DNA of 64,000 bases. It comes from a virus. Location: the IMG/VR virus record IMGVR_UViG_3300036820_000001, one strand, 5' to 3'. The translations under genes and the position numbers were made by a program. The notes beneath the pieces were generated by a model that saw only the letters and a program-made list of their open reading frames with translations, was not told the DNA's origin and did not search any database. Numbering within the stretch: the stretch's first letter is position 1; each line of letters opens with the position of its first letter. Below, one piece after another: positions 18,016 to 36,763 of the stretch.

Positions 18016-19590
18016 GTGCCGATCACTGAGGACATATCACAGCCGGGCGAGGTGCACGGCGTCGGCGTCAGCCCGTCATGCGTGACGCTGAAGTTCAGCC
18101 CGCCTGGCAAGTCGCTGATGCTGGCGCTGGTCACGGCGTACACGCAGAGCGCGGGCGCACCGTCATTGTCTGTGTCTGATAGCGGCAGCCACACCTGGAC
18201 GCTCGGCCCGTCGCGTGCCAACGGGCGGCTGCTGTCGGCCATCTACTACACGTACCTGACGTCGGCCCCTGGCAGTATCACCATGACCGCGACGGACTCA
18301 TCGGGGCAGGAGTGCGTCATCCACCTGACGCCGCGGGTGCTGAACGGCTGCACGAGCACACAGTCCGGGCAGAAGGTGAACAACAACGGCTACTCGCGCG
18401 TCCCGCAGGAGCCGATCACGCCGGGGTCCAAGCTGTCCACGGTCTACATCGCGGCTCTGATGGACGCCCAGCAGGCGACGGTGACGCCGCTGAGCACCAC
18501 GTTCCCCAGCCATACGTACAACATCTCCGAGATCCCCACCTGTCACCTGGCCGGGCGGTCGCTGACGGGCACTGCCTCGGCTGAGAACCTGGGGTGGACG
18601 GTCAGCGGCGCGGCCAACTGGGCACTGTCGGCCATGGAGATCCAGAACGCCGACGTTCCCATCAGCAGTGCTGACACCGGTACCGGCGGAGATACGAGCG
18701 GCGTGACGGTTAAAGCGCGGGTGCCGTCATCGGACGCTGGGACGGGCCTGGAGCTGATCAGGGGCGCGACTGGGACGGGCGCGGCCTTGTTCATGTTCTC
18801 GACCGACACCGGGCACGGCACGGACGCCACTGGCGTAATTACGCAGGTGTACCACGACCTCGGCAGCACGGACGCGGGCGCTGGCGTTGAGGGGTCGGTG
18901 CCGCCGCCGCTGGTGCGCCTGCCGACGCAGTTCGAGTTCGGCACCGGCAGCGAGTTCAGCTTGTACCCGCCCCTGGCTGAATACCCGTCGCTGGGCAACT
19001 TCGGCCCGCTGATGGAAGGGTTCAGCCTCGACCGGGCGGCCATGCTGAACGGCGCGACCGGAGTCGAGAGCGGGCAGCTATATGCCGCGCAGCAGATCAC
19101 CATCACGCCGGACATGACGGTCACGGACCTGATGTCAGATGACTATCACTACGGCATGTGGGTCAACCTGAACAAGGCGGCGCTGCAGGTGACCGAGGGG
19201 TTCCTGCCGTTCACGACGCTGGCGTCCATGACTGGGCTGTCGATCTCCAGCTTCGGCGCGAGCCCGCTGGACTACTACGCGATGCCACTGTGGACGCAGT
19301 ACCAGCACAACCGCAAGGCGGTGCCCATGGCGTTCCGCATGCAGTCACGGGACGGGTACGGCCACTCGCGGGCGCTGGTGTTCGTGCTGTACGCGGTCCA
19401 GCTGGCGGTCATGGACTTCACCGGCACGGTCTACAAGACTGGCCTGGGCGTGAGCTACAGCGGCACGGTGGTGTTCAGCAGCGTCGATGAGGTCGGCAAC
19501 GCGCTGGGGCGGCAGCAGATCGGGCGCATCGTGTCGCAGGCGGGCAACCAGGTCGGCGCGCTGTCGGGCATCCAGTTCCAGGGCAGCTAG
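18016..19590 (+). CDS. fibre-family protein (N-domain shared with 32330 ORF, four S-x-D-x-G-T-G repeats)
   Basis: 524 aa. SSADTGTGGD, SSDAGTGLE, STDTGHGTD and STDAGAGVE cores. The N-terminal ~190 aa resemble the duplicated N-domains of the 1477-aa ORF. Confidence 0.7.
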   Translation: MPITEDISQPGEVHGVGVSPSCVTLKFSPPGKSLMLALVTAYTQSAGAPSLSVSDSGSHTWTLGPSRANGRLLSAIYYTYLTSAPGSITMTATDSSGQECVIHLTPRVLNGCTSTQSGQKVNNNGYSRVPQEPITPGSKLSTVYIAALMDAQQATVTPLSTTFPSHTYNISEIPTCHLAGRSLTGTASAENLGWTVSGAANWALSAMEIQNADVPISSADTGTGGDTSGVTVKARVPSSDAGTGLELIRGATGTGAALFMFSTDTGHGTDATGVITQVYHDLGSTDAGAGVEGSVPPPLVRLPTQFEFGTGSEFSLYPPLAEYPSLGNFGPLMEGFSLDRAAMLNGATGVESGQLYAAQQITITPDMTVTDLMSDDYHYGMWVNLNKAALQVTEGFLPFTTLASMTGLSISSFGASPLDYYAMPLWTQYQHNRKAVPMAFRMQSRDGYGHSRALVFVLYAVQLAVMDFTGTVYKTGLGVSYSGTVVFSSVDEVGNALGRQQIGRIVSQAGNQVGALSGIQFQGS

Positions 19591-24153: not shown

Positions 24154-24430
24154 TGTACCCGTTCGGGCGCGAGCAGGCGGAGGAGACGGACCGGGATGTC
24201 TACGGTCGCTGCCGGATGCGCCTGGGGGCGAGTCAGCGGAAGAATACTGCGAGACGCTGCCCCAGTTCATCTGCAGTGACGGGCTGATCGGGTGCAACGA
24301 CTGCTGCCAGCCCATGTATTACTGCCTGAACGACGACAACTGGCACCACGTGGACCCGGAGCAGGAGTGCTTTCTAATAGCGTGCGAGTGCAAGGAATGC
24401 CTCGCTGAGATGATGGGGGAAATGGCATGA
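24063..24430 (+). pseudogene. Cys-rich protein gene split over two frames (frame break at G5 run 24224-24228)
   Basis: Frame 0 has high GC3 up to ~24230. After that, frame -1 carries the coding signal (AEEYCETLPQFICSDGLIGCNDCCQP...CECKEC) but has no start codon upstream of Met 24314. Confidence 0.4.
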
Positions 24431-25020
24431 CGCAGCGAACAGAGCAGTTCCCGATCCAGCCGAGCCCGGAGCCGCCGCCACGGCGGCACTGGAAGCGGTG
24501 GGTAGCGGGCGGGGCGGTCGGCGTGGTCGTCCTGGTGGCGGGCATCTCGATCGCCAACGCGGGCAGCCACCCGGCAGCGCCAGCAGCGCCGAGGGCGACT
24601 ACATCGGCCCCGGCCATGCCTTCGGCCACGCTAGCGGCACCAGTGCCGTCCACGGCGGCACCAGCGCCCGCTGCGCCTCCGCCACCGGCCAACACGGCAC
24701 CGGCGATGACGAGCGACCAGCAGCAGGCTGTGCAGTCGGCGCAGGGCTACCTGACGGACGGCGAGGGGTTCAGCTACGCAGGTCTCCTGCAGCAGCTGAC
24801 TTCGGCCGCGGGCGACGGGTTCAGCAACGCCGACGCGACGTTCGCCATCAACTACCTCAACCCCAACTGGGATCAGCAGGCGGTCGAGTCGGCCCAGGGC
24901 TACCTGGACGACGGCGAGGGGTTCAGCAAGTCCAGCCTGCTCCAGCAGCTGACCTCCACCTACGGCGAGGGCTTCACCAACGCCCAGGCCGAGTACGCCA
25001 TCAGCAAGACGATGGGCTAG
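24427..25020 (+). CDS. membrane-anchored protein with two Ltp-like (host cell surface-exposed lipoprotein) repeats
   Basis: N-terminal TM helix, Pro/Ala linker, then two units Q-Q-A-V-x-S-A-Q-G-Y-L..GEGFS..LLQQLTS..G(D/E)GF(S/T)NA(D/Q)A.(F/Y)AI matching the Ltp repeat pattern. Confidence 0.75.
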   Translation: MTQRTEQFPIQPSPEPPPRRHWKRWVAGGAVGVVVLVAGISIANAGSHPAAPAAPRATTSAPAMPSATLAAPVPSTAAPAPAAPPPPANTAPAMTSDQQQAVQSAQGYLTDGEGFSYAGLLQQLTSAAGDGFSNADATFAINYLNPNWDQQAVESAQGYLDDGEGFSKSSLLQQLTSTYGEGFTNAQAEYAISKTMG

Positions 25021-25900: not shown

Positions 25901-26476
25901 GTGCTCATCACCGACTCAGACCTCGGTCGCGGCCAGGAGGGCGACACCGAGGGCGCGGTTGACTCCGACGCTGCCACCGGGGCGGACACCGAGTCGCGTC
26001 AGATCATCGTGGCGGACGCGGACAGCGGCGTCGCCATCTCCGGGTCGGCCAGCGTCTTCGTCCTGGCTTACATCGCGTCGGACATCGACGGCGGCACCGG
26101 GGCCGAGGCCTGGAGCACGGCGGCGGGCAAGAGCGACGCGGACGCTGGCACCGGGGCGGACGTGCACGCGCTGCTGTACGCGCCAGCGGACGTGGACGCG
26201 GCCACCGGGGCTGAGGAGCAGTGGTACGCCATCGGGGTGTTCCCGTTCCCGCCACCGTGGCTGTTCGGCCCCAGTGGCGGGCTGCGCGTCGTCTGGCACT
26301 ACGAGATGCGGCGGGACATGGCCACGCTGGAGTTCCCGTCCGACTCGGACGCGGGCGGCGGGGCTGAGGGCAACGGGCCGACCGCCGTCGTCACGCAGCT
26401 GGTAGCCGGGGTCGAGGTGACCTGCGCCAAGGCCAGGGAGGCTGCGCTGGTGCTCCTGGTCGAGGAGATGGCGTGA
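25901..26476 (+). CDS. stand-alone copy of the C-terminal module of the following 1311-aa protein
   Basis: 191 aa that align along their whole length with aa ~1098-1311 of 26473..30408 (QEGDTE, DIDGGTGAE, LYAPA, FPPPWLF.PSGGLRVVWH). Confidence 0.65.
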   Translation: MLITDSDLGRGQEGDTEGAVDSDAATGADTESRQIIVADADSGVAISGSASVFVLAYIASDIDGGTGAEAWSTAAGKSDADAGTGADVHALLYAPADVDAATGAEEQWYAIGVFPFPPPWLFGPSGGLRVVWHYEMRRDMATLEFPSDSDAGGGAEGNGPTAVVTQLVAGVEVTCAKAREAALVLLVEEMA

Positions 26477-29400
26477 CAACCAGGGTCGGGGCGTTCCTCA
26501 ACCCGTCTGCGATGGGGTTCGCGGCGTTCACCGACTGGACGAGCGCGGCCAGCACATGGAGCGGCTGGACGGGCACCGGCACCCCCACGGTCACCCGGTC
26601 GTACCAGGGCACTGGACCCTGGACCATCGGCTCTGATATGACGGCGATGATCGCGGCCGGGTGCAAGATCCTCATCAGCATGACCCCGGCCTACAACCCG
26701 GTCAGCTCGACCGACTACGCCAATATCCAGTCGTTCATGGAGGCGCTGGTTGCGGCCGGGGCCGACTGCGACGTGTGCATCTGGTCGGAGCCGTACTACA
26801 ACGGGCTGACGTCGGCCCAGTACATCGCCGCGGTGCAGTACTACGGGCCTGCGATCCGGCCGTATTACCCAATGTCATTCCAGACCGCCAACGGGTCGGT
26901 GGTGCACAACAGCGAGGCTTCGTACTATCCCGGTGACGCTTACGTGGATAAGGTCAGCACGGACTACTACGCGTCTGGCTACGTGGCCGGGGACAGGCTC
27001 ACGACCATTGCTGCTGTCGCGTCGGGGGCGTCGCCGCCCAAGCCGTTCTGCCTGTGGGAGATCAACGGGTCACCGGCCAGCACAGGCCAGTCGCAGGCTA
27101 ATGTCACCGCGTTCTTCGAGTACGTGCAGTCGTTCATGCTGGGGCAGGTCGCGGCGCAGCTTCCGATCGGTGATATCTGCCTGTTTAACGGCGCGCCTGG
27201 TGAGAGCGTGTTCGGCTGCGACGCCATCGAGGAGGCGAGCTTCGAGGGCGGCAACGGCAACTGGCTGGCGGCAGGCAACACCTCGGTTGCCAACAGCTCT
27301 GCGCAGCATCATTCTGGTGCTGACTGCCTGGCGGTCACCTGCACGGGATCGACCCCGGCTCAGATCGCGTCGTGCATCGCCACCGCCTACGCCACCGAGA
27401 TGCTGCCGGTCGCGGTCGGGGACAGCGTTGACGGCGCTATATGGGTGCGCGCAGCGGCCACGTCGCGCACGGTCACCTGCCAGGTCCAGTGGTACACATC
27501 GACCGGCACGGAGATCAGCGTCACGGCTGGGACTGGCGTGGCGGACTCCACCTCGGCGTGGACGCAGGCTGTCATATCCGGGGCGGTCGCTCCGGCGACG
27601 GCGGCTTGGGCGCGCCTGTTCCCGGCTATCGCTAGCGCCGCCGCGAGCGAGGTCCACTACTTTGACGACGCCGAGCTGCGGGACGTCGAGGGGGACAACC
27701 CCAATAACACGACCACCATCGAGTTCGGCTGGGACTACCGGATCGCCTTGTTCCAAGCGCTGTACGAGGCGCTGAACACGCAGCCGCCGCTGGCGCAGAC
27801 GCCGGCGTCCCCTGGCAGGGCTGTCCCTGGCGCGGCCACTCCTGGGCTTATTCCGTCGTCGTCCAAGTCCAGCTCGGACAGCGGCACCGGGGCTGAGTCG
27901 CAGCGGATAGCCACCGAGCGCCTGTTCAGCTCGGACAGCGGCACCGGGGCTGAGACGGGGATTATCCCGCTGCCCAAGATGGCGACGCTGGTCGAGAACT
28001 TCAGGGCCAACGACTTCAGCGCGGTGTGGGGCAACTCGTACGGCACGTACAGCTGGTCACCGGGCAGCGCGGCCATCCAGTGCGACACGGGCTACAGCTC
28101 TGCCCTGGGCAGCACCGTCAACTACGACCTGACCAGCTCATCGATCTACGTGGGCATCGCTCCGTACATCGCGACCAGCTCAGCGACGTTCCTGTTCCTG
28201 ACCAGCAGCACCGGCAACGCGATTATGTTCGGGCAGACGGGCGTTAACCTGGCTGTCTACAAGGCAGTCGCTGGCGTCCAGACGTCGCTATTCACGACCA
28301 CGTACAACGCGACTAGCCATGCCTGGTGGCGGATCAGGGAGTCCGCGGGCACGGTGTTCTTCGACACCGCGCCGGACGGGGCGACATGGACCAACCAGTA
28401 CAGCACGGCGGACACCACGTTCTCTGGGACGGTCCTCACCGCGCTGCAGGTTGACATCCAGCCTGGCGACTACGGGTCGGACCCGACTGGCACCACGTAC
28501 CTGTACGCGGTCAACTCGCCCAGGCTGCAAGCATCGACGGACGCGGGCACCGGGGCGGAGACTTACGTCCTGACGGCTCGCACGCCGAGCGCGGACAGCG
28601 GCACCGGGGCTGACGCGCAGAGCATGACCGCCAGGGTGCCCAGCGCTGACGCTGGCACTGGTCTGGAGGCGCAGAGCCTGATCGCCAAGGTGCCCAACCC
28701 GGACAGCGGCACCGGGGCCGAGACGCAGACGGTCATCGAGTCCCTGGCCAGCGCCGACGCTGGCACTGGCTTGGAGGCGCTGGCGCTGACGGCTAGCCTG
28801 GCCAGCGCAGACGCTGGCACCGGGGCCGAGCTGCAGGCGCTGACGATTCCCAGCGCAGACGCGGGCGCTGGTACGGAGACGCAGGCGCTTACGGCCAGGC
28901 TGCCCAGTTCCGACGCGGGCACCGGTGCGGACGCGCAGAGCGTCCGGCTGCCCAGCTCTGATATTGGTACCGGGGCCGAGCTGCAGGTGCTCACGGCGAG
29001 GGTGCCCAGCTCTGATAGCGGTACTGGGGCCGAGCAGCAGGGCATCGCGCTGGCCAGCTCGGACAGCGGCACTGGGGCTGAGGCCCAGGCTGTGGCTGCC
29101 ACCGCGCTCGTGTCCGACGTGGACAGCGGCGTGGGCGTTGACACGGAGAGTGTCAGCAGCGGCTCGATGCTCGTCAGCGACACGGACGCGAGCTTCACCA
29201 GTTACGAGGTGGAGTCGGGCCTCGGGCGCATCCCCAGCTCGGACGCGGCCACTGGAGCTGAGGTCCTGGCGATTCGCGTCGTCGTGTTCGACGGCGGCAC
29301 CGGGTCCGAGTCGCAGTCGTCTCGGGCGTCGATGTCCAACGCGGACTCCGGCACCGGCGCGGACGCTCAGGTCCTGACGCTGGCGTCGTCGGACACTGGC

Positions 29401-30408
29401 ACCGGGTCTGAGCTGCAGGCCACTGCCGACTCCATATCCGATGTGGACGCCGGGACCGGCGCGGACGTGCAGGTTCTCCGGCTGGCCGACGTGGACGCTG
29501 GCACGGGTGCGGACACTGGCCTGCTGACGGCGCTGGCGCGAGACACGGACGCGGGGCTGGGCGCGGACGCGGATACGCTGATGGCGCTGGAGACTGGCGC
29601 TGACGCCGGGCTGGGCGTGGACGCTGGCTTGCTGCGCGCGCTGGAGTCCGACCTTGACGCCGGGCTGGGCGCGGACGCGGCCACGCTGCCGGCTGTGCGG
29701 GTCAGGGACGCCGACGCGGGTACCGGTACGGAGACGCAGTTCTACGAGCCGTCCGGCACGATGTTCATCGTCAGCGCCGACTCGGGGCGCGTGCAGGAGG
29801 GCGACACTGAGGCCGCGGTCGGCTCGGACTTCGCCACCGGGGCGGACGCGCAGTCCCCCATGGTCGTGGTCCCGCCACCGGGCGCGGACCTGGCTACGGG
29901 GGCTGAGTCGGGCAGCTTCGTCGTCCTGGTCAACGCGCTGGCGGACATCGACGGCGGGACCGGGGCTGAGTCGTGGGCCACTGCGGGAGGCAGGGCTGAC
30001 CTCGATAGCGGCGATGGCGCGGACTCGCAGCTGTCGCTTTACGCACCGGCTGGCGCGGACGGCGGCACTGGCGGCGAGCCCGGCGCTTACCAGCTGGGGA
30101 TCTGGGCGTTCCCGCCGCCGTGGCTGTTCAATCCGAGCGGCGGGCTGCGGGTCGTCTGGCACGAGGGGCAGCCGGATGAGGTGGTGGTCCGCGAGTGGGA
30201 GGGCGAGTTCACCCGCCACCTGGACGCGGCGCAGCGGTTCTACGAGATCATCAGGGACTCGGACTCGCTGGAGTTCGTGTCGGACGCCGACGCGGCGGCT
30301 GGGAGCGACGTGAGCGGGCGGACGGCCAACGTCGCGGTGTGCGTGTTCGGGCCTGATATGGTGCAGCTGGTCAGCGGCGTGCGGATCGTCTGCGGGGTGC
30401 CCAGCTAG
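26473..30408 (+). CDS. fibre/depolymerase-like protein: GH26-like hydrolase + CBM4_9-like + LamG-like + S-x-D-x-G-T-G repeats + C-module
   Basis: YYPGDAYVDKVSTDYY and LWEINGS are GH26-like. FEGGNGNW..VHYFDDAEL is CBM-like. HAWWRIRESAGTVFFDTAPDGATW is LamG-like. About 30 repeat cores. Confidence 0.85.
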   Translation: MTTRVGAFLNPSAMGFAAFTDWTSAASTWSGWTGTGTPTVTRSYQGTGPWTIGSDMTAMIAAGCKILISMTPAYNPVSSTDYANIQSFMEALVAAGADCDVCIWSEPYYNGLTSAQYIAAVQYYGPAIRPYYPMSFQTANGSVVHNSEASYYPGDAYVDKVSTDYYASGYVAGDRLTTIAAVASGASPPKPFCLWEINGSPASTGQSQANVTAFFEYVQSFMLGQVAAQLPIGDICLFNGAPGESVFGCDAIEEASFEGGNGNWLAAGNTSVANSSAQHHSGADCLAVTCTGSTPAQIASCIATAYATEMLPVAVGDSVDGAIWVRAAATSRTVTCQVQWYTSTGTEISVTAGTGVADSTSAWTQAVISGAVAPATAAWARLFPAIASAAASEVHYFDDAELRDVEGDNPNNTTTIEFGWDYRIALFQALYEALNTQPPLAQTPASPGRAVPGAATPGLIPSSSKSSSDSGTGAESQRIATERLFSSDSGTGAETGIIPLPKMATLVENFRANDFSAVWGNSYGTYSWSPGSAAIQCDTGYSSALGSTVNYDLTSSSIYVGIAPYIATSSATFLFLTSSTGNAIMFGQTGVNLAVYKAVAGVQTSLFTTTYNATSHAWWRIRESAGTVFFDTAPDGATWTNQYSTADTTFSGTVLTALQVDIQPGDYGSDPTGTTYLYAVNSPRLQASTDAGTGAETYVLTARTPSADSGTGADAQSMTARVPSADAGTGLEAQSLIAKVPNPDSGTGAETQTVIESLASADAGTGLEALALTASLASADAGTGAELQALTIPSADAGAGTETQALTARLPSSDAGTGADAQSVRLPSSDIGTGAELQVLTARVPSSDSGTGAEQQGIALASSDSGTGAEAQAVAATALVSDVDSGVGVDTESVSSGSMLVSDTDASFTSYEVESGLGRIPSSDAATGAEVLAIRVVVFDGGTGSESQSSRASMSNADSGTGADAQVLTLASSDTGTGSELQATADSISDVDAGTGADVQVLRLADVDAGTGADTGLLTALARDTDAGLGADADTLMALETGADAGLGVDAGLLRALESDLDAGLGADAATLPAVRVRDADAGTGTETQFYEPSGTMFIVSADSGRVQEGDTEAAVGSDFATGADAQSPMVVVPPPGADLATGAESGSFVVLVNALADIDGGTGAESWATAGGRADLDSGDGADSQLSLYAPAGADGGTGGEPGAYQLGIWAFPPPWLFNPSGGLRVVWHEGQPDEVVVREWEGEFTRHLDAAQRFYEIIRDSDSLEFVSDADAAAGSDVSGRTANVAVCVFGPDMVQLVSGVRIVCGVPS
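28531..29735 (+). repeat. in-frame tandem array of S-x-D-x-G-T-G-x-E/D units (approximate bounds)
   Basis: Periodic GAC-GCN-GGC-ACC-GGG-GCN-GAG cores every ~39-48 nt. Imperfect and coding. Confidence 0.8.
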
Positions 30409-30414
30409 TGGCTA

Positions 30415-30421
30415 CGATAGG
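30415..30421 (+). promoter_or_regulatory. CGATAGG motif (family B), 8 nt upstream of ATG 30429
   Basis: CTACGATAGGC-tgagat-ATG in the 20-nt gap after the 1311-aa ORF. Confidence 0.35.
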
Positions 30422-30428
30422 CTGAGAT

Positions 30429-31373
30429 ATGGCGCTTACGGCAACTCTGGAGATCTTCGGCAACCAGTGCTCCTGCGTGGCCACGGGCACATATGGCACC
30501 ACTACGCCGGCCGCTGGTACCAGTGAGAGCTGGGTCATGGGGACTGGGTACACGACGTTCCCGACGCCGCAGGACAGTGTGTTTCCGAACACGTTCTTCC
30601 GAATCGTGGACCCGGCCGCGCCATCGGAGATTATGGCGGTGGTCACGGGGGGCGGCGGGTCTTCGTCGTGGACGGTGATTCGTGGGGTTGAGGGTACTGT
30701 CGTCGCGCACTCGGCTCTGGCCACTTATGACATGGTGATCAGCGCAGGTACGCTGCAGAACCTGAAGCAAGCGTCTAATGCGGTGACGACACCAGTGACG
30801 ATCACGACCAGCACTACGGAGACTGTGCTGGCTACATATACTCCCACGGCTAATGACCTTGAACTCGGGGCTACATTCGAGGCGCTGGCGTTTGGATCGA
30901 TTACCGCGCATGGTGGCACGGCACGCGGGAACCTGGGGTTCAATCTTTACTGGGGCGGGTCTGGATCGGCTGGCGGTGCGTTTACATCTACGGGGTCTAC
31001 CAAGCTGGCCAGCCTGGTGCAAGGCACCAATATGCCCTTGTTCACTGTGACTACGGTGGTGGCTGGAGCTAGTTTTGATGTTAACGGGCAGGTTACTATC
31101 CAGGGCCTCTCAGCAGGTGTGGTGACATCGGCCGCGGCTAACATCAACTGCTTCTACGGGCCGTATAACTCTAGTAATAGCCTGGTTGCGGCCAGTGGTA
31201 TGCAGAGTGCTGTGGCGTCTAATAATGGCGCAGCTGCGGCCAGCTCTGGCTCGGCGGTGACGGTCAGCGGGGCCAGCTCGACGTCTCCTCTAATTCTTAC
31301 TGCGGTGTGGACGTCTGGGTTCACTGTCTATGGAATTACGGCTACTGCGCCGGTTATCTACAGGGTGGCGTGA
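30429..31373 (+). CDS. tail fibre-like protein (low-GC island)
   Basis: 314 aa, Thr/Ser/Gly/Ala-rich. Local GC is about 52% (31 of 60 at 30721-30780). Confidence 0.7.
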   Translation: MALTATLEIFGNQCSCVATGTYGTTTPAAGTSESWVMGTGYTTFPTPQDSVFPNTFFRIVDPAAPSEIMAVVTGGGGSSSWTVIRGVEGTVVAHSALATYDMVISAGTLQNLKQASNAVTTPVTITTSTTETVLATYTPTANDLELGATFEALAFGSITAHGGTARGNLGFNLYWGGSGSAGGAFTSTGSTKLASLVQGTNMPLFTVTTVVAGASFDVNGQVTIQGLSAGVVTSAAANINCFYGPYNSSNSLVAASGMQSAVASNNGAAAASSGSAVTVSGASSTSPLILTAVWTSGFTVYGITATAPVIYRVA

Positions 31374-31987
31374 TGACTCGTCTGGTATGTATGTATGGTG
31401 GTGACTATCCGTTCGAGTCGGATCTGGACCCGAGGGTGAAGGCGGCGCTGGAGAAGTACGCTCCCCAGGTGGGGTTGGAGGTCGAGTGGGTTGACACAAA
31501 GCCCAGTAGACAGATATACGCTGATGAGATGGAAAAGCGGTGGAACGGCACCGAGGACCTGATTATCGTTGAGCAGGACAAAGAGATATTCATGGATACT
31601 CTGCCTAGTTTGCTAGGATGCCGTGAGCCGTGGTGCGGGTACACGTTCTGGCAGAACCCGGAGCCGCACACTAACTTGGTGATCGGCGGGTTCGGGGTGA
31701 CTAAGTTCAGCGCGCAAGTGCAGACGTGGTTCCCGGTGTCGGCGTTCCGTGGTAAGGATCAGGTTGGCATTGACCGGAGGTTCTACGATTACCTCATCAA
31801 GAATCACCGGTTTGGCATCCACTTGCACGGCAGCGTGGTGCATCACCATGTCTACGAGCCGCGGCCGGAGTCGGTGCGCCGTTATGTCCGTATGTTGCGC
31901 GAGCGTGGAGTGATCGCTCCGTCTCTCGCGCCACCGGCGCTAGACCCCGGTCTGCTGCCTGGTAGCTATCGTCTGCCCGATAGGTAG
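31373..31987 (+). CDS. possible GT-A-type glycosyltransferase
   Basis: TGATG-coupled. DLIIVEQDKEIFMDTLPSLL resembles the GT2 DxD-region pattern. Low-confidence product call. Confidence 0.6.
   Translation: MTRLVCMYGGDYPFESDLDPRVKAALEKYAPQVGLEVEWVDTKPSRQIYADEMEKRWNGTEDLIIVEQDKEIFMDTLPSLLGCREPWCGYTFWQNPEPHTNLVIGGFGVTKFSAQVQTWFPVSAFRGKDQVGIDRRFYDYLIKNHRFGIHLHGSVVHHHVYEPRPESVRRYVRMLRERGVIAPSLAPPALDPGLLPGSYRLPDR
31977..31983 (+). promoter_or_regulatory. CCGATAG motif (family B), 8 nt upstream of ATG 31992
   Basis: CCGATAGGTA-gaggc-ATG. Overlaps the last codons of the upstream gene. Confidence 0.35.
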
Positions 31988-31991
31988 AGGC

Positions 31992-32303
31992 ATGGCGATC
32001 TTCACCTCTGGCATCACGCAGGCGTACGTGACCAACAACGCCCAGGCCAAGCTGGCGGCGCTGCGCAATGCCCTGGAGGATGTGGAGAACTTCTACGAGT
32101 GGCTGTCGGCGTACGCAGAGTCTGACCTGGAGACGATGGGGTTCACCACGGCTGACGCGACGGCGATATTCACGGCGTTCGCTGACGCCAACGCGCTGTA
32201 CCAGATCTACACCACCGGGCTGCCGCCGGGGACGTACCCGCAGCCGGCCAGTGCCTACGTGTACGCGGCGAGCCAGCGGGTGATCATCGGGCCGCTGAGC
32301 TAG
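31992..32303 (+). CDS. hypothetical protein, paralog of 8653..8946
   Basis: 103 aa. Shares the LETMGFTTADATAIFTAFADANAL-type segment with the 97-aa ORF at 8653. Confidence 0.65.
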   Translation: MAIFTSGITQAYVTNNAQAKLAALRNALEDVENFYEWLSAYAESDLETMGFTTADATAIFTAFADANALYQIYTTGLPPGTYPQPASAYVYAASQRVIIGPLS

Positions 32304-32329
32304 GGCTTCCAATCTGACGGGAGGCCGCC

Positions 32330-35300
32330 ATGGCGTGGTCACGCCTCCAGTCCAACAGCGCGACCAACAGCAGCGGGAACGCGTCGGTCGCGTATACCAG
32401 CAACCTGACGTCCGGCTCGGTGATGATCGCCATCGTCGGCCTCAACAGCGATGATGCGGTTCTTGGTACTGCGTGCACGGTCAAGGATAGTAACAACAAT
32501 GCATTCACGTTCCTTGGCGGTAACGTAGCGGCTGGGTGGGACTTCCTCGGGGTGTATGTGCTGGCCACCCCGTCCGGGGACGCTGGTACTAAGCCGACTA
32601 TTACCGGCACATTCAATGTCACGGATAACTTCGGCTGGGTTATCCTCGTGCAGGAGATATCAGGGATTAGCGTCACACCGGACGGCACCCTGGCAGGCAA
32701 TAGCGGGAGCGGAACGCCTGCGACGCTGGGTGCGTACTCGGACACCGCGTCTAATGAATACCTGCTCGTGGTCTACGGTGACGCGGCTGGTAACGCGACG
32801 GCGACTACGCCGACTGGCTACACGGCTGACCCATCCAATAACAGCGGCAGCTTCAACTTCGACCTGTTTGTGTTTTATAAGAACTCGACCGGTGGCACTG
32901 AGTCCGCGTCCATTACCACGAACACGTCTGGTGACTGGTCTACCACGGTCGTGGCTCTTAAGCTGGCTGGCGGGACGTCCATCTCCAGCTCGGATAGCGG
33001 GACTGGGTCTGAGCTAGGCACCGTGTCTGGCCCGGTTGATGTCACGTGGAAGCCGACGACGCTTAACGGCACCAACACTCTGACGTCCACGTCGTTCACG
33101 CCCAGCCCTAATGTGCTGCTGGTCGCCATCGGCGCGGTATGTAACGGCAACGGACTGACCACTACCAGCTTCACGCTGACGGGGACGGGGCCTCAGACAT
33201 GGACCCAGCTTCTGTTTGCTAACGATGGGTCCGGTGCAGGTGGCGGGTCAGCCGTATGGGTGTCGGACTCGGGGTCTTCCCCGGCCAGCCAGACTGTTAC
33301 TGTTACTGCGCTGCCGTCCACGGTCACGGACTGTGACGTCATGATCTTCGAGGCTGTGGGCGCTGCTGACGCGGCTGCGCAGATAGCTCAGGCGGCGCTG
33401 AATGGGCAGACTGCGACTGGCACGCAGTCCGGTATCACCATTACCCCGGCGCAGACGGGATCGATGCTGGTGGGTGCCTGTGGTCAGGCACCGGCGACTG
33501 CGTTTGTGGTGGATGGCGTAATCACTGACACTTTTGCCGCGCCTGCCAAGGGCGCCAATAACGGGTATGCGACGGCGTTCTACGCCATAGCCAGGACGAC
33601 GGCCGGGGTTGCGGTTACCTTTGGCGCGACCGCTACTCGTAATAAGTCAGCCTTCACTGGCGTAGAGATCATCCCGCCGGCTCCGTCGCCATTGCCGATG
33701 ACGGCGGCGAGTCCTGGCAAGGCTGTGCCTGGCGCAGTTAGCCCGGGAGTTATCCCGGTGTCAGGCGGCGGATCGACTCCCAAGTCCAGCTCGGATGCGA
33801 GTGCCGCGGGGGCGGACGCGCAGGCGCTGACCGCGAGGGTGCCGAGCGCGGATACGGGCACCGGGGCCGAGCTGCAGGGCGTTCACGAGATCATCCCGGA
33901 AGCTGGGCTGGACACCGGCGCTGGCCTGGAGACGCAGGCGCTCACGGCCAGGGTGCCCAGTACGGACGCTGGCACTGGGACCGAGCTGCAGGCGCTCACG
34001 GCGTTCGTGCACGACTCGGACAGCGGCACGGGCCTGGAGACGCAGAGCGTCGTCCAGTTTAACCAGGTGGCATCGCCTGACTCTGGGGCCGGGCTAGAGG
34101 CGCAGGGCGTCATAGCATCCGTATCCGGCTCGGACACGGGCACTGGAGCGGACGCGCAGGCGCTGGGCGTCGCTGGGGCGGACAGCGGGTCGGGCGCTGA
34201 CGCCGGGCAGGTGCGAGCAGCCCTGTTGTCGGCTGACGTTGGCACTGGAGCTGACGCCCAGCAGATCGGCGTGGCGAGTTCTGACAGCGGAGCGGGGGCG
34301 GATGGTACCGGGACGGTATCTGCCCGGCTGAGTTCGGCTGACACCGGCACCGGTGCTGAGGCGCAGTACGTGCTGGTCACCTCGGCTGATGCTGGGACGG
34401 GGGCTGAGACTGGCGTTATCGTTGCGACGCTGGCCGGTGCCGACTCTGGGTCTGGGACTGAGGCTCAGTACGTCGGGGTGGCCAGCGCTGACGCAGGCAC
34501 CGGCCAGGAGGCTGGGCAGGCTAACGCAGTCGTGCTGGCCGCGGACTCGGGTACCGGGGCTGAGGCGCAGATCATCGCGGTGGCTTCGTCTGACGCTGGG
34601 CTGGGTGGTGACGCTGGCACTGCGACTGAGACCATCCCGGTGGCCAGCGCCGATACTGGGCACGGTGCTGAGACCGGCGTTGCCGCGGCCAGCCTGGCGG
34701 GATCGGACAGTGGCACCGGGGCGGACGCCCAGGGCATCGGCCTGTCTGCGCTGGACGCTGGCACTGGGGCTGAGACTGGCGTCGTCACGGCTGCCCTGGC
34801 TGGCCAGGACGCGGGCACCGGATCTGATGCGCAGGCAGTATTGCTGGCGTCGGCTGACGCGGGCACTGGCGCTGACGCCGGGCAGTCGTCGGCCAGGCTG
34901 GCGGCAGCGGACAGCGGGTCGGGCGCTGAGCTGCAGATCGTCGGGGTGTCCTCGGCCGACGCTGGGTCTGGGCTGGACGCTGGCGCTGAGGTCAGCACCA
35001 CACCGGTGTCTGGCAGCGACGCGGGGTCTGGGGCTGAGGCGCAGTTTGTCGGCGTCAGCGGGCTGGACGCGGGCACCGGGGTGGAGGCGGTCAGCGACCT
35101 CGACCGGCTGAACTCGCTGGACACCGGGCAGGGCACGGAGGCGCAGTTCGTCGGCGTCCGTGGGCTGGACGCGGGGACTGGAGCGGACGCGGGCTCTGTC
35201 TTCGAGACCATCCCGGTGGCCGGGTCGGATACCGGCGCTGGCGCTGAGGCTCAGGTCATCCTGGTGGCTAGCGCGGACGCTGGCACGGGTGCGGACGCGG

Positions 35301-36763
35301 GCAGCCCGTTCGAGATCATTCCGGTGGCTGGGTCCGATACGGGTAGCGGCAGTGCAGCTCAGACTGTTCGGGTTAACGCGAGTGACGCTGGCACTGGCCA
35401 GGAGGCGTCCAGCGTCGCAGCGGCGGCGGCGGGGGCCGACGCGGGCACCGGGGCGGACCAGGGCGTCCAGCTTGGCCTGGCAGGGCTGGAGGCGGCATCC
35501 GGGGCCGACGCTGGCACTGTCGTCGCATCGGCCGCTAGCGCGGACGCGGGCACTGGCGGCGAGGCCTGGAGTGTCATCCTGCCGCTGGCCGACGCAGGCA
35601 CCGGGGCGGAGTCTCAGGCGCTGCTCGCCCGGCTGGCGGACAGCGACCTCGGCACGGGCGCGGACAGCGGGACGGCCAACAGGTCGGGCAGCCCGTCCGA
35701 CAGTGACCACGGCACCGGCGCTGAGGCGCAGACGGTCACCGCCCGGCTGGCGGACAGCGACCTCGGCATGGGTGCTGAGGCCCAGCAGACTGGCGTGATG
35801 GTCACCGGTGCTGACGCTGGCATCGGGGCTGAGGCACAGCACGAGGCGGTGGCCGCGGCCGACTCCGGGTCCGGCTCCGAATCGCAGTTCACGCGGGTCA
35901 GTTCGGCCGACGCTGGGTCTGGCGCTGAGGCGCAGACGGTCGTCGAGCAGATGGCCGGATCGGACAGCGGCACCGGAGCCGAGTTGCAGAGCGTCCGGCT
36001 GCCGAGCGCAGACGCTGGGACTGGCGCTGAGGCGCAGTCGCTGGCGGCTAGGCTGGCTGACTACGACCTCGGCCAGGGCACGGACACCGGGCAGGTGATC
36101 GGGCAGTCCGTGCAGGTGTCCTCCTCGGACGCGGGCACTGGCGCTGACCTGACTGGCCAGCTGGGGCTGGCATCAGCGGACGTAGGGTCCGGGGCTGAGG
36201 CTCAGGTCATGCTGGGCCGCCCGGCTGACGCCGACACTGGCACCGGCACGGACGCGGGGCAGCAGACGGGCCACCCGGCGGACGCGGATCACGGAGCTGG
36301 CGGCGACCTGACTGGCGCGGTCGGGCTGGCGTCGGCTGACACGGGCACTGGGGCCATGGCGCAGGCGATCGGCCTCGCGGGGTCCGACGCGGCGGCCGGG
36401 CTGGAGTTCTGGGGCATCGTTGCGCACCTGTTCGACCTGGACAGCGGGGCGGACACGGAGTTCGGGTTCGTCCCTGGGCTTATCCAGTTCGTGTCCGACT
36501 CGGACGCTGGCACCGGGGCGCAGGGCTACGCCATCGGGCTGCGATTGTCGGACGCGGGCACCGGGGCGAGCACGGAGGCGGTGCCCGGCCAGTCTCTGGA
36601 TGTGGGCGATTTCGACTCCGGTCACGGTGTGGATGGCCTCTGGTACACGTGGGGGACTGGCTGGGGGGCCATCATCTTTGACCTGCAGATCGTGGCGGCG
36701 CAGATCAGCCAGGATGCGGCTGGTGAGGCGCAGCTGGTGATGCTGGCTGAGCCACCGTCCTAG
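32330..36763 (+). CDS. giant fibre-family protein (two N-domains + ~55 S-x-D-x-G-T-G-x-E repeats)
   Basis: 1477 aa. The N-terminal ~450 aa are a tandem duplication of a domain also found in 18016..19590. The rest is the repeat array. Confidence 0.85.
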   Translation: MAWSRLQSNSATNSSGNASVAYTSNLTSGSVMIAIVGLNSDDAVLGTACTVKDSNNNAFTFLGGNVAAGWDFLGVYVLATPSGDAGTKPTITGTFNVTDNFGWVILVQEISGISVTPDGTLAGNSGSGTPATLGAYSDTASNEYLLVVYGDAAGNATATTPTGYTADPSNNSGSFNFDLFVFYKNSTGGTESASITTNTSGDWSTTVVALKLAGGTSISSSDSGTGSELGTVSGPVDVTWKPTTLNGTNTLTSTSFTPSPNVLLVAIGAVCNGNGLTTTSFTLTGTGPQTWTQLLFANDGSGAGGGSAVWVSDSGSSPASQTVTVTALPSTVTDCDVMIFEAVGAADAAAQIAQAALNGQTATGTQSGITITPAQTGSMLVGACGQAPATAFVVDGVITDTFAAPAKGANNGYATAFYAIARTTAGVAVTFGATATRNKSAFTGVEIIPPAPSPLPMTAASPGKAVPGAVSPGVIPVSGGGSTPKSSSDASAAGADAQALTARVPSADTGTGAELQGVHEIIPEAGLDTGAGLETQALTARVPSTDAGTGTELQALTAFVHDSDSGTGLETQSVVQFNQVASPDSGAGLEAQGVIASVSGSDTGTGADAQALGVAGADSGSGADAGQVRAALLSADVGTGADAQQIGVASSDSGAGADGTGTVSARLSSADTGTGAEAQYVLVTSADAGTGAETGVIVATLAGADSGSGTEAQYVGVASADAGTGQEAGQANAVVLAADSGTGAEAQIIAVASSDAGLGGDAGTATETIPVASADTGHGAETGVAAASLAGSDSGTGADAQGIGLSALDAGTGAETGVVTAALAGQDAGTGSDAQAVLLASADAGTGADAGQSSARLAAADSGSGAELQIVGVSSADAGSGLDAGAEVSTTPVSGSDAGSGAEAQFVGVSGLDAGTGVEAVSDLDRLNSLDTGQGTEAQFVGVRGLDAGTGADAGSVFETIPVAGSDTGAGAEAQVILVASADAGTGADAGSPFEIIPVAGSDTGSGSAAQTVRVNASDAGTGQEASSVAAAAAGADAGTGADQGVQLGLAGLEAASGADAGTVVASAASADAGTGGEAWSVILPLADAGTGAESQALLARLADSDLGTGADSGTANRSGSPSDSDHGTGAEAQTVTARLADSDLGMGAEAQQTGVMVTGADAGIGAEAQHEAVAAADSGSGSESQFTRVSSADAGSGAEAQTVVEQMAGSDSGTGAELQSVRLPSADAGTGAEAQSLAARLADYDLGQGTDTGQVIGQSVQVSSSDAGTGADLTGQLGLASADVGSGAEAQVMLGRPADADTGTGTDAGQQTGHPADADHGAGGDLTGAVGLASADTGTGAMAQAIGLAGSDAAAGLEFWGIVAHLFDLDSGADTEFGFVPGLIQFVSDSDAGTGAQGYAIGLRLSDAGTGASTEAVPGQSLDVGDFDSGHGVDGLWYTWGTGWGAIIFDLQIVAAQISQDAAGEAQLVMLAEPPS
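33785..36636 (+). repeat. in-frame tandem array of S-x-D-x-G-T-G-x-E/D units with a ~33-35-aa super-repeat (approximate bounds)
   Basis: Cores such as SADAGTGAE, GSDSGTGAD and SADTGTGAE. Two flavours alternate at 34380-35480. Confidence 0.85.

Follow-up and report, generated by a model that had tools for sequence, protein, structure and literature searches.

A candidate glycan-degrading fiber with an N-terminal GH26-like barrel and an acidic repeat stalk in an uncultured actinobacterial phage

Within the 64,000-nt virus sequence analyzed here (IMG/VR record IMGVR_UViG_3300036820_000001; this whole stretch is called the window), one plus-strand gene at positions 26473 to 30408 encodes a modular fiber-like protein of 1311 amino acids (aa). 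We consider it probable, at roughly 0.6, that this protein is a virion-associated glycan-degrading fiber, of the depolymerase accessory type, of a phage that infects a soil actinobacterium. An earlier, sequence-only reading had proposed a candidate depolymerase fiber with an N-terminal enzyme. The enzyme, the carbohydrate-binding module (CBM), and the fiber idea have largely held up, whereas the LamG label and the exact domain order have not. The open reading frame (ORF) and all the motifs quoted in that reading are present in the sequence: YYPGDAYVDKVSTDYY at aa 151 to 166, LWEINGS at aa 194 to 200, FEGGNGNW at aa ~257, VHYFDDAEL at aa ~394, and HAWWRIRESAGTVFFDTAPDGATW at aa 616 to 639. The domain map also bears out the placement of the enzymatic head at the extreme N terminus with the stalk and a C-terminal module (C-module) behind it. 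The order along the protein is a barrel with a nested CBM, a Pro-rich linker, two repeats, a third globular domain, 22 repeats, and the C-module, as follows.

26473 to 30408, plus strand: the whole gene, a modular fiber-like protein of 1311 aa (ORF listing, G+C content at third codon positions [GC3], Shine-Dalgarno [SD] sequence, and GTGA overlap).
26473 to 27207, plus strand: a (beta/alpha)8 barrel resembling glycoside hydrolase family 26 (GH26), strands beta1 to beta8, aa 1 to 245 (AlphaFold2 [AF2], Foldseek, and family profile).
27220 to 27711, plus strand: a beta-sandwich CBM, aa ~250 to 413, in the beta8-alpha8 loop (AF2, Foldseek, and insertion lengths).
27721 to 27780, plus strand: the terminal helix of the barrel, W-D-Y-R-I-A-L-F-Q-A-L-Y-E-A-L-N, aa ~419 to 436 (a motif that directly follows beta8 in CBM-less relatives).
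27781 to 27957, plus strand: the Pro-rich head-to-stalk linker PLAQTPASPGRAVPGAATPGLIP and the first two repeat units, at aa 469 and 488 (junction match to ORF 32330-36763).
27958 to 28542, plus strand: the third globular domain, aa 496 to 690, of the phrog_14065 family, an actinophage minor-tail-protein module (PHROG match, IMG/VR and phage relatives).
28531 to 29757, plus strand: the acidic repeat stalk, 22 units of 16 or 18 aa (motif count, unit profile, and Tandem Repeats Finder [TRF]).
29761 to 30408, plus strand: the C-module, aa 1097 to 1311, with 6 degenerate repeats and the conserved core FPPPWLFNPSGGLRVVWH (paralog and stand-alone homologs).

The enzyme domain was recognized by both structure prediction and profile comparison. 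The AF2 model of the barrel built from a 44-sequence alignment showed eight beta/alpha units with a predicted local distance difference test (pLDDT) score of 92.7 and a predicted template modeling (pTM) score of 0.91; with a 10-sequence alignment, the pLDDT of the barrel was only ~25 to 45. In a Foldseek comparison with the PDB, ranks 1 to 8 were all GH26 enzymes, the top one being the beta-1,3-xylanase 2ddx (template modeling [TM] score of 0.71, E=3e-9) followed by GH26 mannanases, and other families of clan GH-A (GH5, GH2, GH72, and GH30) were found below them. The profile of the 44-sequence family gave the same answer: it retrieved solely GH26 chains from the PDB down to E~0.1, and 44 of the 46 matches listed at E<=1 were GH26 enzymes or Endoglucanase H fusion constructs. 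The remaining two matches (E=0.23 and 0.89) were considered noise. The best profile match was the Clostridium thermocellum lichenase (Endoglucanase H, 2bvd/2bv9; E=1.8e-7). Thus, by family profile and by fold, the N-terminal domain is GH26-like, as the sequence-only reading had claimed.

Alignment of the catalytic glutamates to GH26 structures, which that reading had put forward as a check, found both of them kept and rightly placed. In the profile alignment to 2bvd, E106, the Glu of W-x-E-P, falls opposite the H-E-A-N-G Glu, and E196, the Glu of W-E-x-N, falls opposite the I-I-A-E-F Glu. We take these residues of 2bvd to be E109 (acid/base) and E222 (nucleophile) of CtLic26A, although literature searches did not confirm the numbering. 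In the AF2 model, E106 lies just past strand 4 (residues 99 to 103) and E196 lies within strand 7 (residues 192 to 198). Among 112 full-length domain copies, E106 was conserved in 111 and E196 in all 112, and P72, Y124, D164, and Y166 were also essentially invariant. D164 and Y166 form the DxY of the GH26-type signature YYPGDAYVDxxxxDYY (YYPGDAYVDKVSTDYY in the fiber), which aligns with YPGDNYVDYTSIDGY of 2bvd and also with 12nx. From the alignment and the model, E106 (W-S-E-P, after beta4) is the putative acid/base and E196 (L-W-E-I-N, in beta7) is the putative nucleophile.

The curated models were less responsive. The score of the barrel against the Pfam GH26 model (PF02156) was 13.3 bits, below the gathering cutoff of 20.2 bits (E=0.054), no NCBIfam model matched the domain, and a single-sequence search of the PDB gave a marginal GH26 signal (E=0.011). 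Strict GH26 membership is therefore unproven; the GH26 label stands for the fold and the glutamate pair but not for the family in its strict sense. The domain is predicted to be a GH26-like, clan GH-A, two-glutamate retaining glycosidase from a divergent clade that curated models miss.

The CBM that follows in sequence is not placed simply after the enzyme, as had been proposed, but is inserted between beta8 and the last helix of the barrel. This became apparent when the spacing between beta8 and the terminal helix was compared across 48 family domains and found to be bimodal. A helix with the conserved pattern D-[YF]-R-[IV]-x-L-[WLY]-Q..Y.AL occurs 0 to 16 residues past strand 8 in about 30 domains and 161 to 167 residues past it in 17 domains, the fiber protein included. 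Two such spacing classes mean that the beta8-alpha8 loop holds the CBM as a nested domain. This loop lies at the catalytic face of the barrel, so that the CBM could add to the substrate cleft. Residues ~256 to 405 were modeled by AF2 with a pLDDT of ~80. Foldseek matched them to CBM22, CBM16, CBM4, and CBM61 structures (TM scores of 0.56 to 0.67 on the target, E values down to 3e-8), the best being CBM22 4xup/4xuo (target TM score of 0.67, E=3e-8), and also to the central fiber of mycobacteriophage Douge. Hence, the CBM4_9-like assignment of the sequence-only reading is confirmed at the level of a CBM4/9/16/22-type jelly-roll fold. The score against Pfam CBM_4_9 (PF02018) was 14.3 bits, short of the cutoff of 25.9 bits; the relative P0006 has a precomputed PF02018 match.

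The third domain had been called LamG-like, and this label was not upheld. No Laminin_G match (E<=0.1) was found in 48 family members, DUF1349, a family of the concanavalin-like clan, matched weakly in 8 of the 48 (best E=3.6e-4), the domain alone had no match in Pfam, and a sequence search of the PDB returned no relative. Instead, all 48 members matched phrog_14065. There were 113 relatives in IMG/VR, in which the domain is usually N-terminal, and 11 Streptomyces phages carry it in a protein that is mostly annotated as a minor tail protein. A divergent copy is present at aa 215 to 388 of the Tal-like protein of the same phage (positions 2948 to 8653, plus strand; hhalign probability of 96%, E=2.5e-9). 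In gp58 of Streptomyces phage Ponzi (locus L124, 2096 to 4579; annotated "glycoside hydrolase"), the domain follows a GH46 domain (PF01374, E=1e-58, chitosanase family). A glycan-binding accessory role of the third domain is plausible. As for its position, the domain is indeed present, but it does not precede the repeat array; it interrupts the repeats, with two units in front of it. The Ponzi gp58 gene adjoins genes for a minor tail protein and lysis. Another carrier, Hiyaa gp13 (locus L123, 3756 to 7088), is annotated "minor tail protein"; its gene has the capsid genes on one side and the head-to-tail adaptor genes on the other, which is an unexpected setting for a tail protein.

The stalk consists of acidic repeats of a rare type. 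The motif D-x-[GADS]-x-G-x-[EDQ] occurs 30 times in the whole fiber ORF, whereas residue shuffles gave 0.69 on average and never more than 5. The sequence-only reading had placed about 30 units in 28531-29735; the total holds for the entire ORF, but this span contains just 22, with 2 more before the third domain and 6 degenerate ones in the C-module. The spacing is mainly 16 or 18 aa (TRF periods of 48, 54, and 102 nt), the units follow the consensus phi-[AP]-S-[AS]-D-[AS]-G-T-G-A-[ED]-x-Q-x-phi-x-A-x-phi, and the array carries a net charge of -47 over 409 aa. No relative of the stalk was found in Pfam, the PDB, or NCBIfam; NCBIfam matches to staphylococcal SD-repeat adhesins were far below threshold and compositional and were rejected as homology. 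Related repeats were detected in a single GenBank phage, in gp8 of Rhodococcus phage Madraxi, and in 2 loci among 2.9 million IMG/VR contigs. One of these loci (L120, 6900 to 11188) carries a more hydrophobic version, V-P-I-T-D-A-G-A-A-V-E-A-V-S-F-I-V, which suggests a strand-turn-strand unit. In that locus, a 422-aa protein consists almost wholly of an ~18-aa D-x-G-x-x-x-E repeat, and a 360-aa protein ending in the repeat and a 491-aa protein are encoded upstream of it. We infer that the stalk is beta-rich and fibrous, possibly metal-binding.

The proposal that window proteins share the same stalk proved correct. Three other ORFs carry the repeat, namely, 32330-36763 (50 units), 25901-26476 (6 units), and 18016-19590 (4 units), and two of them bear directly on the architecture of the fiber.

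25901 to 26476, plus strand: the upstream gene, a 191-aa free-standing paralog of the C-module (45% identity, its own SD sequence, and a stop codon overlapping the fiber GTG).
32330 to 36763, plus strand: a sibling stalk protein of 1477 aa with 50 units (repeat count and junction match).

The fiber and its larger sibling have a Pro-rich head-to-stalk junction in common (51% identity, E=7e-12). The N-terminal head of the sibling (~450 aa) is unrelated to the fiber head and has one repeat unit between its two subdomains; searches of Pfam, the PDB, and GenBank phages yielded no relatives of this head. With a shared junction and stalk and different heads, the heads look exchangeable on a common stalk. 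A likeness between the C-terminal half of the bacterial relative P0004 and the sibling head ("...LKLA") was not significant (E=0.75). A low-G+C island at 30400 to 33400 (0.56 to 0.62, compared to 0.69 to 0.73 in the flanking stalks) spans three small ORFs (30429 to 32303) and the sibling head and may be a recently acquired cassette. The G+C content of the head regions of the GH-bearing fiber is 0.645 to 0.652, slightly below that of its stalk.

The claim of a conserved C-module is supported by its 45% identity (E=8e-53) to the protein of the upstream 191-aa gene, which is apparently translationally coupled to the fiber gene, judging from the overlap of the two. Stand-alone homologs of the module (P0163 and P0164) begin at a Met equivalent to Met1097 of the fiber, and the P0164 gene directly follows a gene for a 588-aa protein. 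No SD sequence precedes the ATG at 29761 (Met1097), so an internal start there is unlikely; taken together with where the homologs start, this means that a once separate gene has been fused in frame to give the C-module. No relative of note was found by tblastn and megablast against GenBank phages, in the IMG/VR scan, or by sequence search of the PDB. The module could serve as an anchor, as an oligomerization or assembly factor, or as a tip. An anchor or assembly role is favored because the N terminus leaves no room for an anchor, and the 191-aa protein could likewise be an assembly or anchoring partner for the stalk proteins.

The gene itself appears to be well defined. Its GC3 of 0.86 is coding-like and the same as that of neighboring genes, and its GTG start lies 5 nt downstream of an SD sequence (GAGGAG) and shares nucleotides with the stop codon of the preceding gene (GTGA). 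A public gene call (P0011) placed the start at Met14 of the fiber protein instead. An antisense ORF of 643 aa opposite the stalk (28288 to 30219, minus strand) was outside the list of ORFs with coding-like GC3 and was set aside as an artefact of the high-G+C repeats. A promoter and terminator scan gave output at chance level. Scans of the whole 1311-aa protein against Pfam and PHROG returned no match, and its segments were then scanned singly. By megablast, the GenBank phages contained nothing related to the gene.

The genomic neighborhood is that of a tail. The window opens with the distal tail protein Dit (249 to 1130; phrog_33), followed by the Tal-like protein of 1901 aa, which has a subthreshold Sipho_Gp37 match at aa 532 to 631 (E=6e-4), and then by a long run of plus-strand genes that includes the three other repeat proteins and an Ltp-type lipoprotein. 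A replication module with SNF2 helicase, DnaB, and family-A polymerase genes lies downstream. The fiber gene lies downstream of Dit and the Tal-like protein, is surrounded by repeat-stalk genes, and comes ahead of the replication genes. The G+C content of the window is about 68%, no GenBank phage is close to it, and the gene upstream of the fiber gene is also on record within a 139,587-bp sequence. This region is the tail-fiber module of a large uncultured actinobacterial phage of at least 140 kb. The Ltp-type gene (24427 to 25020, plus strand), for a "host cell surface-exposed lipoprotein" with two repeats (PF07553, E=1.5e-29), sits within the fiber-gene region; it is likely a superinfection-exclusion moron, which suggests a temperate lifestyle.

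The GH26-related clade extends well beyond this protein. An exhaustive profile search yielded 323 family representatives at 50% identity, 101 of them with E values below 1e-30. Soil Actinomycetota (Thermoleophilia, Gaiellales, Solirubrobacterales, Dactylosporangium, Actinoplanes, and Streptomyces) account for most of the clade, and in most members the domain is embedded at varying positions in proteins of 300 to 2300 aa. Some look secreted; for instance, the bacterial protein P0004 has, by inspection, a Tat-like N terminus (RRQALLG...). Among phages, no match to the GH domain was found by tblastn against 50,697 GenBank genomes, even at E<=1, the nearest viral folds in BFVD were GH5-annotated proteins, and no report of a phage GH26 was found in the literature. 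Many relatives of ~1350 aa carry the enzyme near the C terminus, the conventional layout, and others carry it near the N terminus. Since the placement varies (C-terminal, N-terminal, tandem, or stalk-less), the enzyme-plus-CBM cassette is mobile. Of the 158 family proteins examined, the fiber protein is the sole one that joins the enzyme to a long stalk of the D-x-G-x-G-x-E type, and the N-terminal mounting of the cassette on an acidic stalk is a lineage-specific trait.

Other arrangements were seen within the clade. P0010 (1392 aa), with a jelly-roll or CBM-like N terminus, two GH26-like barrels in tandem, and a C-terminal part resembling Sipho_Gp37, is a further actinophage-type tail protein that uses the clade. 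In ten relatives (P0023, P0030, P0036, P0037, P0054, P0057, P0068, P0074, P0075, and P0078), the barrel is split right after the nucleophile strand by an insertion of ~70 to 240 residues, mostly about 100 to 150. This site is a second hotspot for nested domains, separate from the beta8-alpha8 site of the CBM. A cellular locus with 48% identity (L082) is broken across frames.

If the protein works as a virion-borne glycan-degrading fiber, the barrel would cleave a beta-linked cell-surface polysaccharide (capsule, exopolysaccharide, or wall glycopolymer) by retaining double displacement, with the nested CBM and the third domain serving as substrate-holding modules. The repeats would form a beta-rich stalk, possibly stabilized by metal ions, that projects the head off the particle, and the C-terminal module would anchor or oligomerize the protein. 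The N terminus would then be distal, the reverse of the usual fiber polarity. No anchor is possible at the N terminus because beta1 begins at residue 5, and no recognized anchor or particle-binding domain was found in the protein. We also entertained a bolder scheme, in which the acidic 16/18-residue array is an undescribed fibrous fold (a metal-stabilized beta-solenoid or beta-spiral) serving as a universal, C-terminally anchored plug-in stalk of reversed polarity on which this phage lineage exchanges unrelated N-terminal heads (the GH26-like enzyme with its nested CBM here, another head in ORF 32330-36763), the C-module protein is its anchor or assembly partner, and the GH26-like clade is a new CAZy-level family of actinobacterial glycanases. 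This scheme as a whole is unlikely.

Several observations weigh against a virion-borne enzyme. The PF02156 threshold was missed, and E values of 0.01 or less were obtained for just 6 of the 44 relatives. The residue before the acid/base is Ser here, compared to His in GH26 and in many relatives. The closest homologs, P0001 and P0002, are free-standing, stalk-less proteins of 430 aa in phage contigs, and P0001 is encoded just upstream of a portal gene rather than in a tail module, which means that the enzyme module can work off a fiber. Finally, the sibling stalk protein lacks the C-module, and virion attachment through this module is a candidate role. The divergence from curated GH26 and the loss of the His, along with the frequency of binding-only domains in phage fibers such as that of Douge, would fit a noncatalytic adhesin in which the barrel, without turnover, acts with the CBM as a lectin-type receptor-binding head. 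However, the position before the Glu is variable in the family (it is Pro in P0001), and both glutamates and the DxY are retained and near-invariant in the 112 copies, which argues for selection on catalysis. We regard the adhesin as the least probable of the readings weighed here.

The free-standing homologs outside tail modules would also suit an enzyme that is not part of the virion at all, whether soluble, released at lysis, or moron-type, and that clears extracellular or wall polysaccharide for progeny release or blocks superinfection. The apparent Tat-type signal of P0004, a weak match of one family member to Pfam TAT_signal, and the Ltp superinfection-exclusion gene 1.5 kb upstream point the same way. 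The fiber protein itself, however, has no signal peptide, as beta1 starts at residue 5, its ~400-aa repeat stalk and tail-protein module are hard to explain in a soluble enzyme, and its gene, which comes after those for Dit and Tal, is surrounded by genes for other stalk proteins. This explanation is rather improbable. Slightly less probable again is a fiber decorating the capsid or neck that tethers the particle to polysaccharide matrices. It would account for the third domain in Hiyaa gp13, encoded between capsid and adaptor genes, for P0001 next to a portal gene, and for C-terminal anchoring, which is unusual among tail fibers. But Dit and Tal are encoded ~25 kb upstream of the gene, which sits among fiber-like genes and before the replication module, and the Tal-like protein has a copy of the third domain as well. 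A virion-associated, glycan-degrading fiber thus remains the preferred reading.

Comparison with known systems shows which parts are familiar. The barrel has the (beta/alpha)8 fold, the Glu pair, the Y-P-G-D-x-Y-V-D-x-x-x-x-D-x-Y motif, and the ~265-aa domain size in common with GH26 enzymes such as CtLic26A (2bvd/2bv9) and the Vibrio beta-1,3-xylanase (2ddx), but it differs in its ~15% identity, W-x-E-P in place of H-E-x-N-G, the nested CBM, and the phage-fiber setting. The GH5-annotated, tail-associated clan GH-A phage proteins (Pseudomonas phage POR1 and uncultured Caudovirales, in BFVD) also have the TIM-barrel fold of a retaining glycosidase in large structural-type proteins (TM scores of ~0.5 to 0.6), yet they belong to another GH family and have no detectable sequence similarity and a different stalk and accessory domains. 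Ponzi gp58 and Hiyaa gp13 have the third domain in common with the fiber, paired in Ponzi with a glycosidase; the Ponzi enzyme, however, is a mid-protein GH46, its third domain is C-terminal, and the acidic stalk and C-module are absent. The CBM-fold domains of the central fiber of Douge bind host glycans experimentally (PMC13033339). That fiber (gp20; 8zdp/8zdq) is likewise an actinophage fiber with CBM-fold domains, but it has no enzyme domain, is anchored by an N-terminal arm in the conventional polarity, and has another stem architecture. Classical tailspikes (P22 and the Klebsiella K2-2 tailspike protein, 8iq9) are alike in concept as virion-borne polysaccharide-degrading receptor-binding proteins, but in those the enzyme is a right-handed beta-helix and the domain that binds the particle is N-terminal, whereas here a TIM barrel is N-terminal and the fibrous part C-terminal. 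What is known, then, is the idea of a phage depolymerase, and what is unusual is a GH26-related clade new to phages, a nested CBM, and a rare acidic stalk. The fused C-terminal module, which implies reversed polarity, is a further unusual feature.

Receptor-binding and depolymerase proteins of phages of soil Actinomycetota are almost uncharacterized, and the substrate of the E106/E196 enzyme could reveal a surface glycan that serves as a phage receptor. The layout of head, linker, stalk, and C-module, with a sibling that carries another head, amounts to a natural head-swapping scaffold, and the N-terminal enzyme is a counterexample to the rule of an N-terminal anchor and C-terminal receptor binding.

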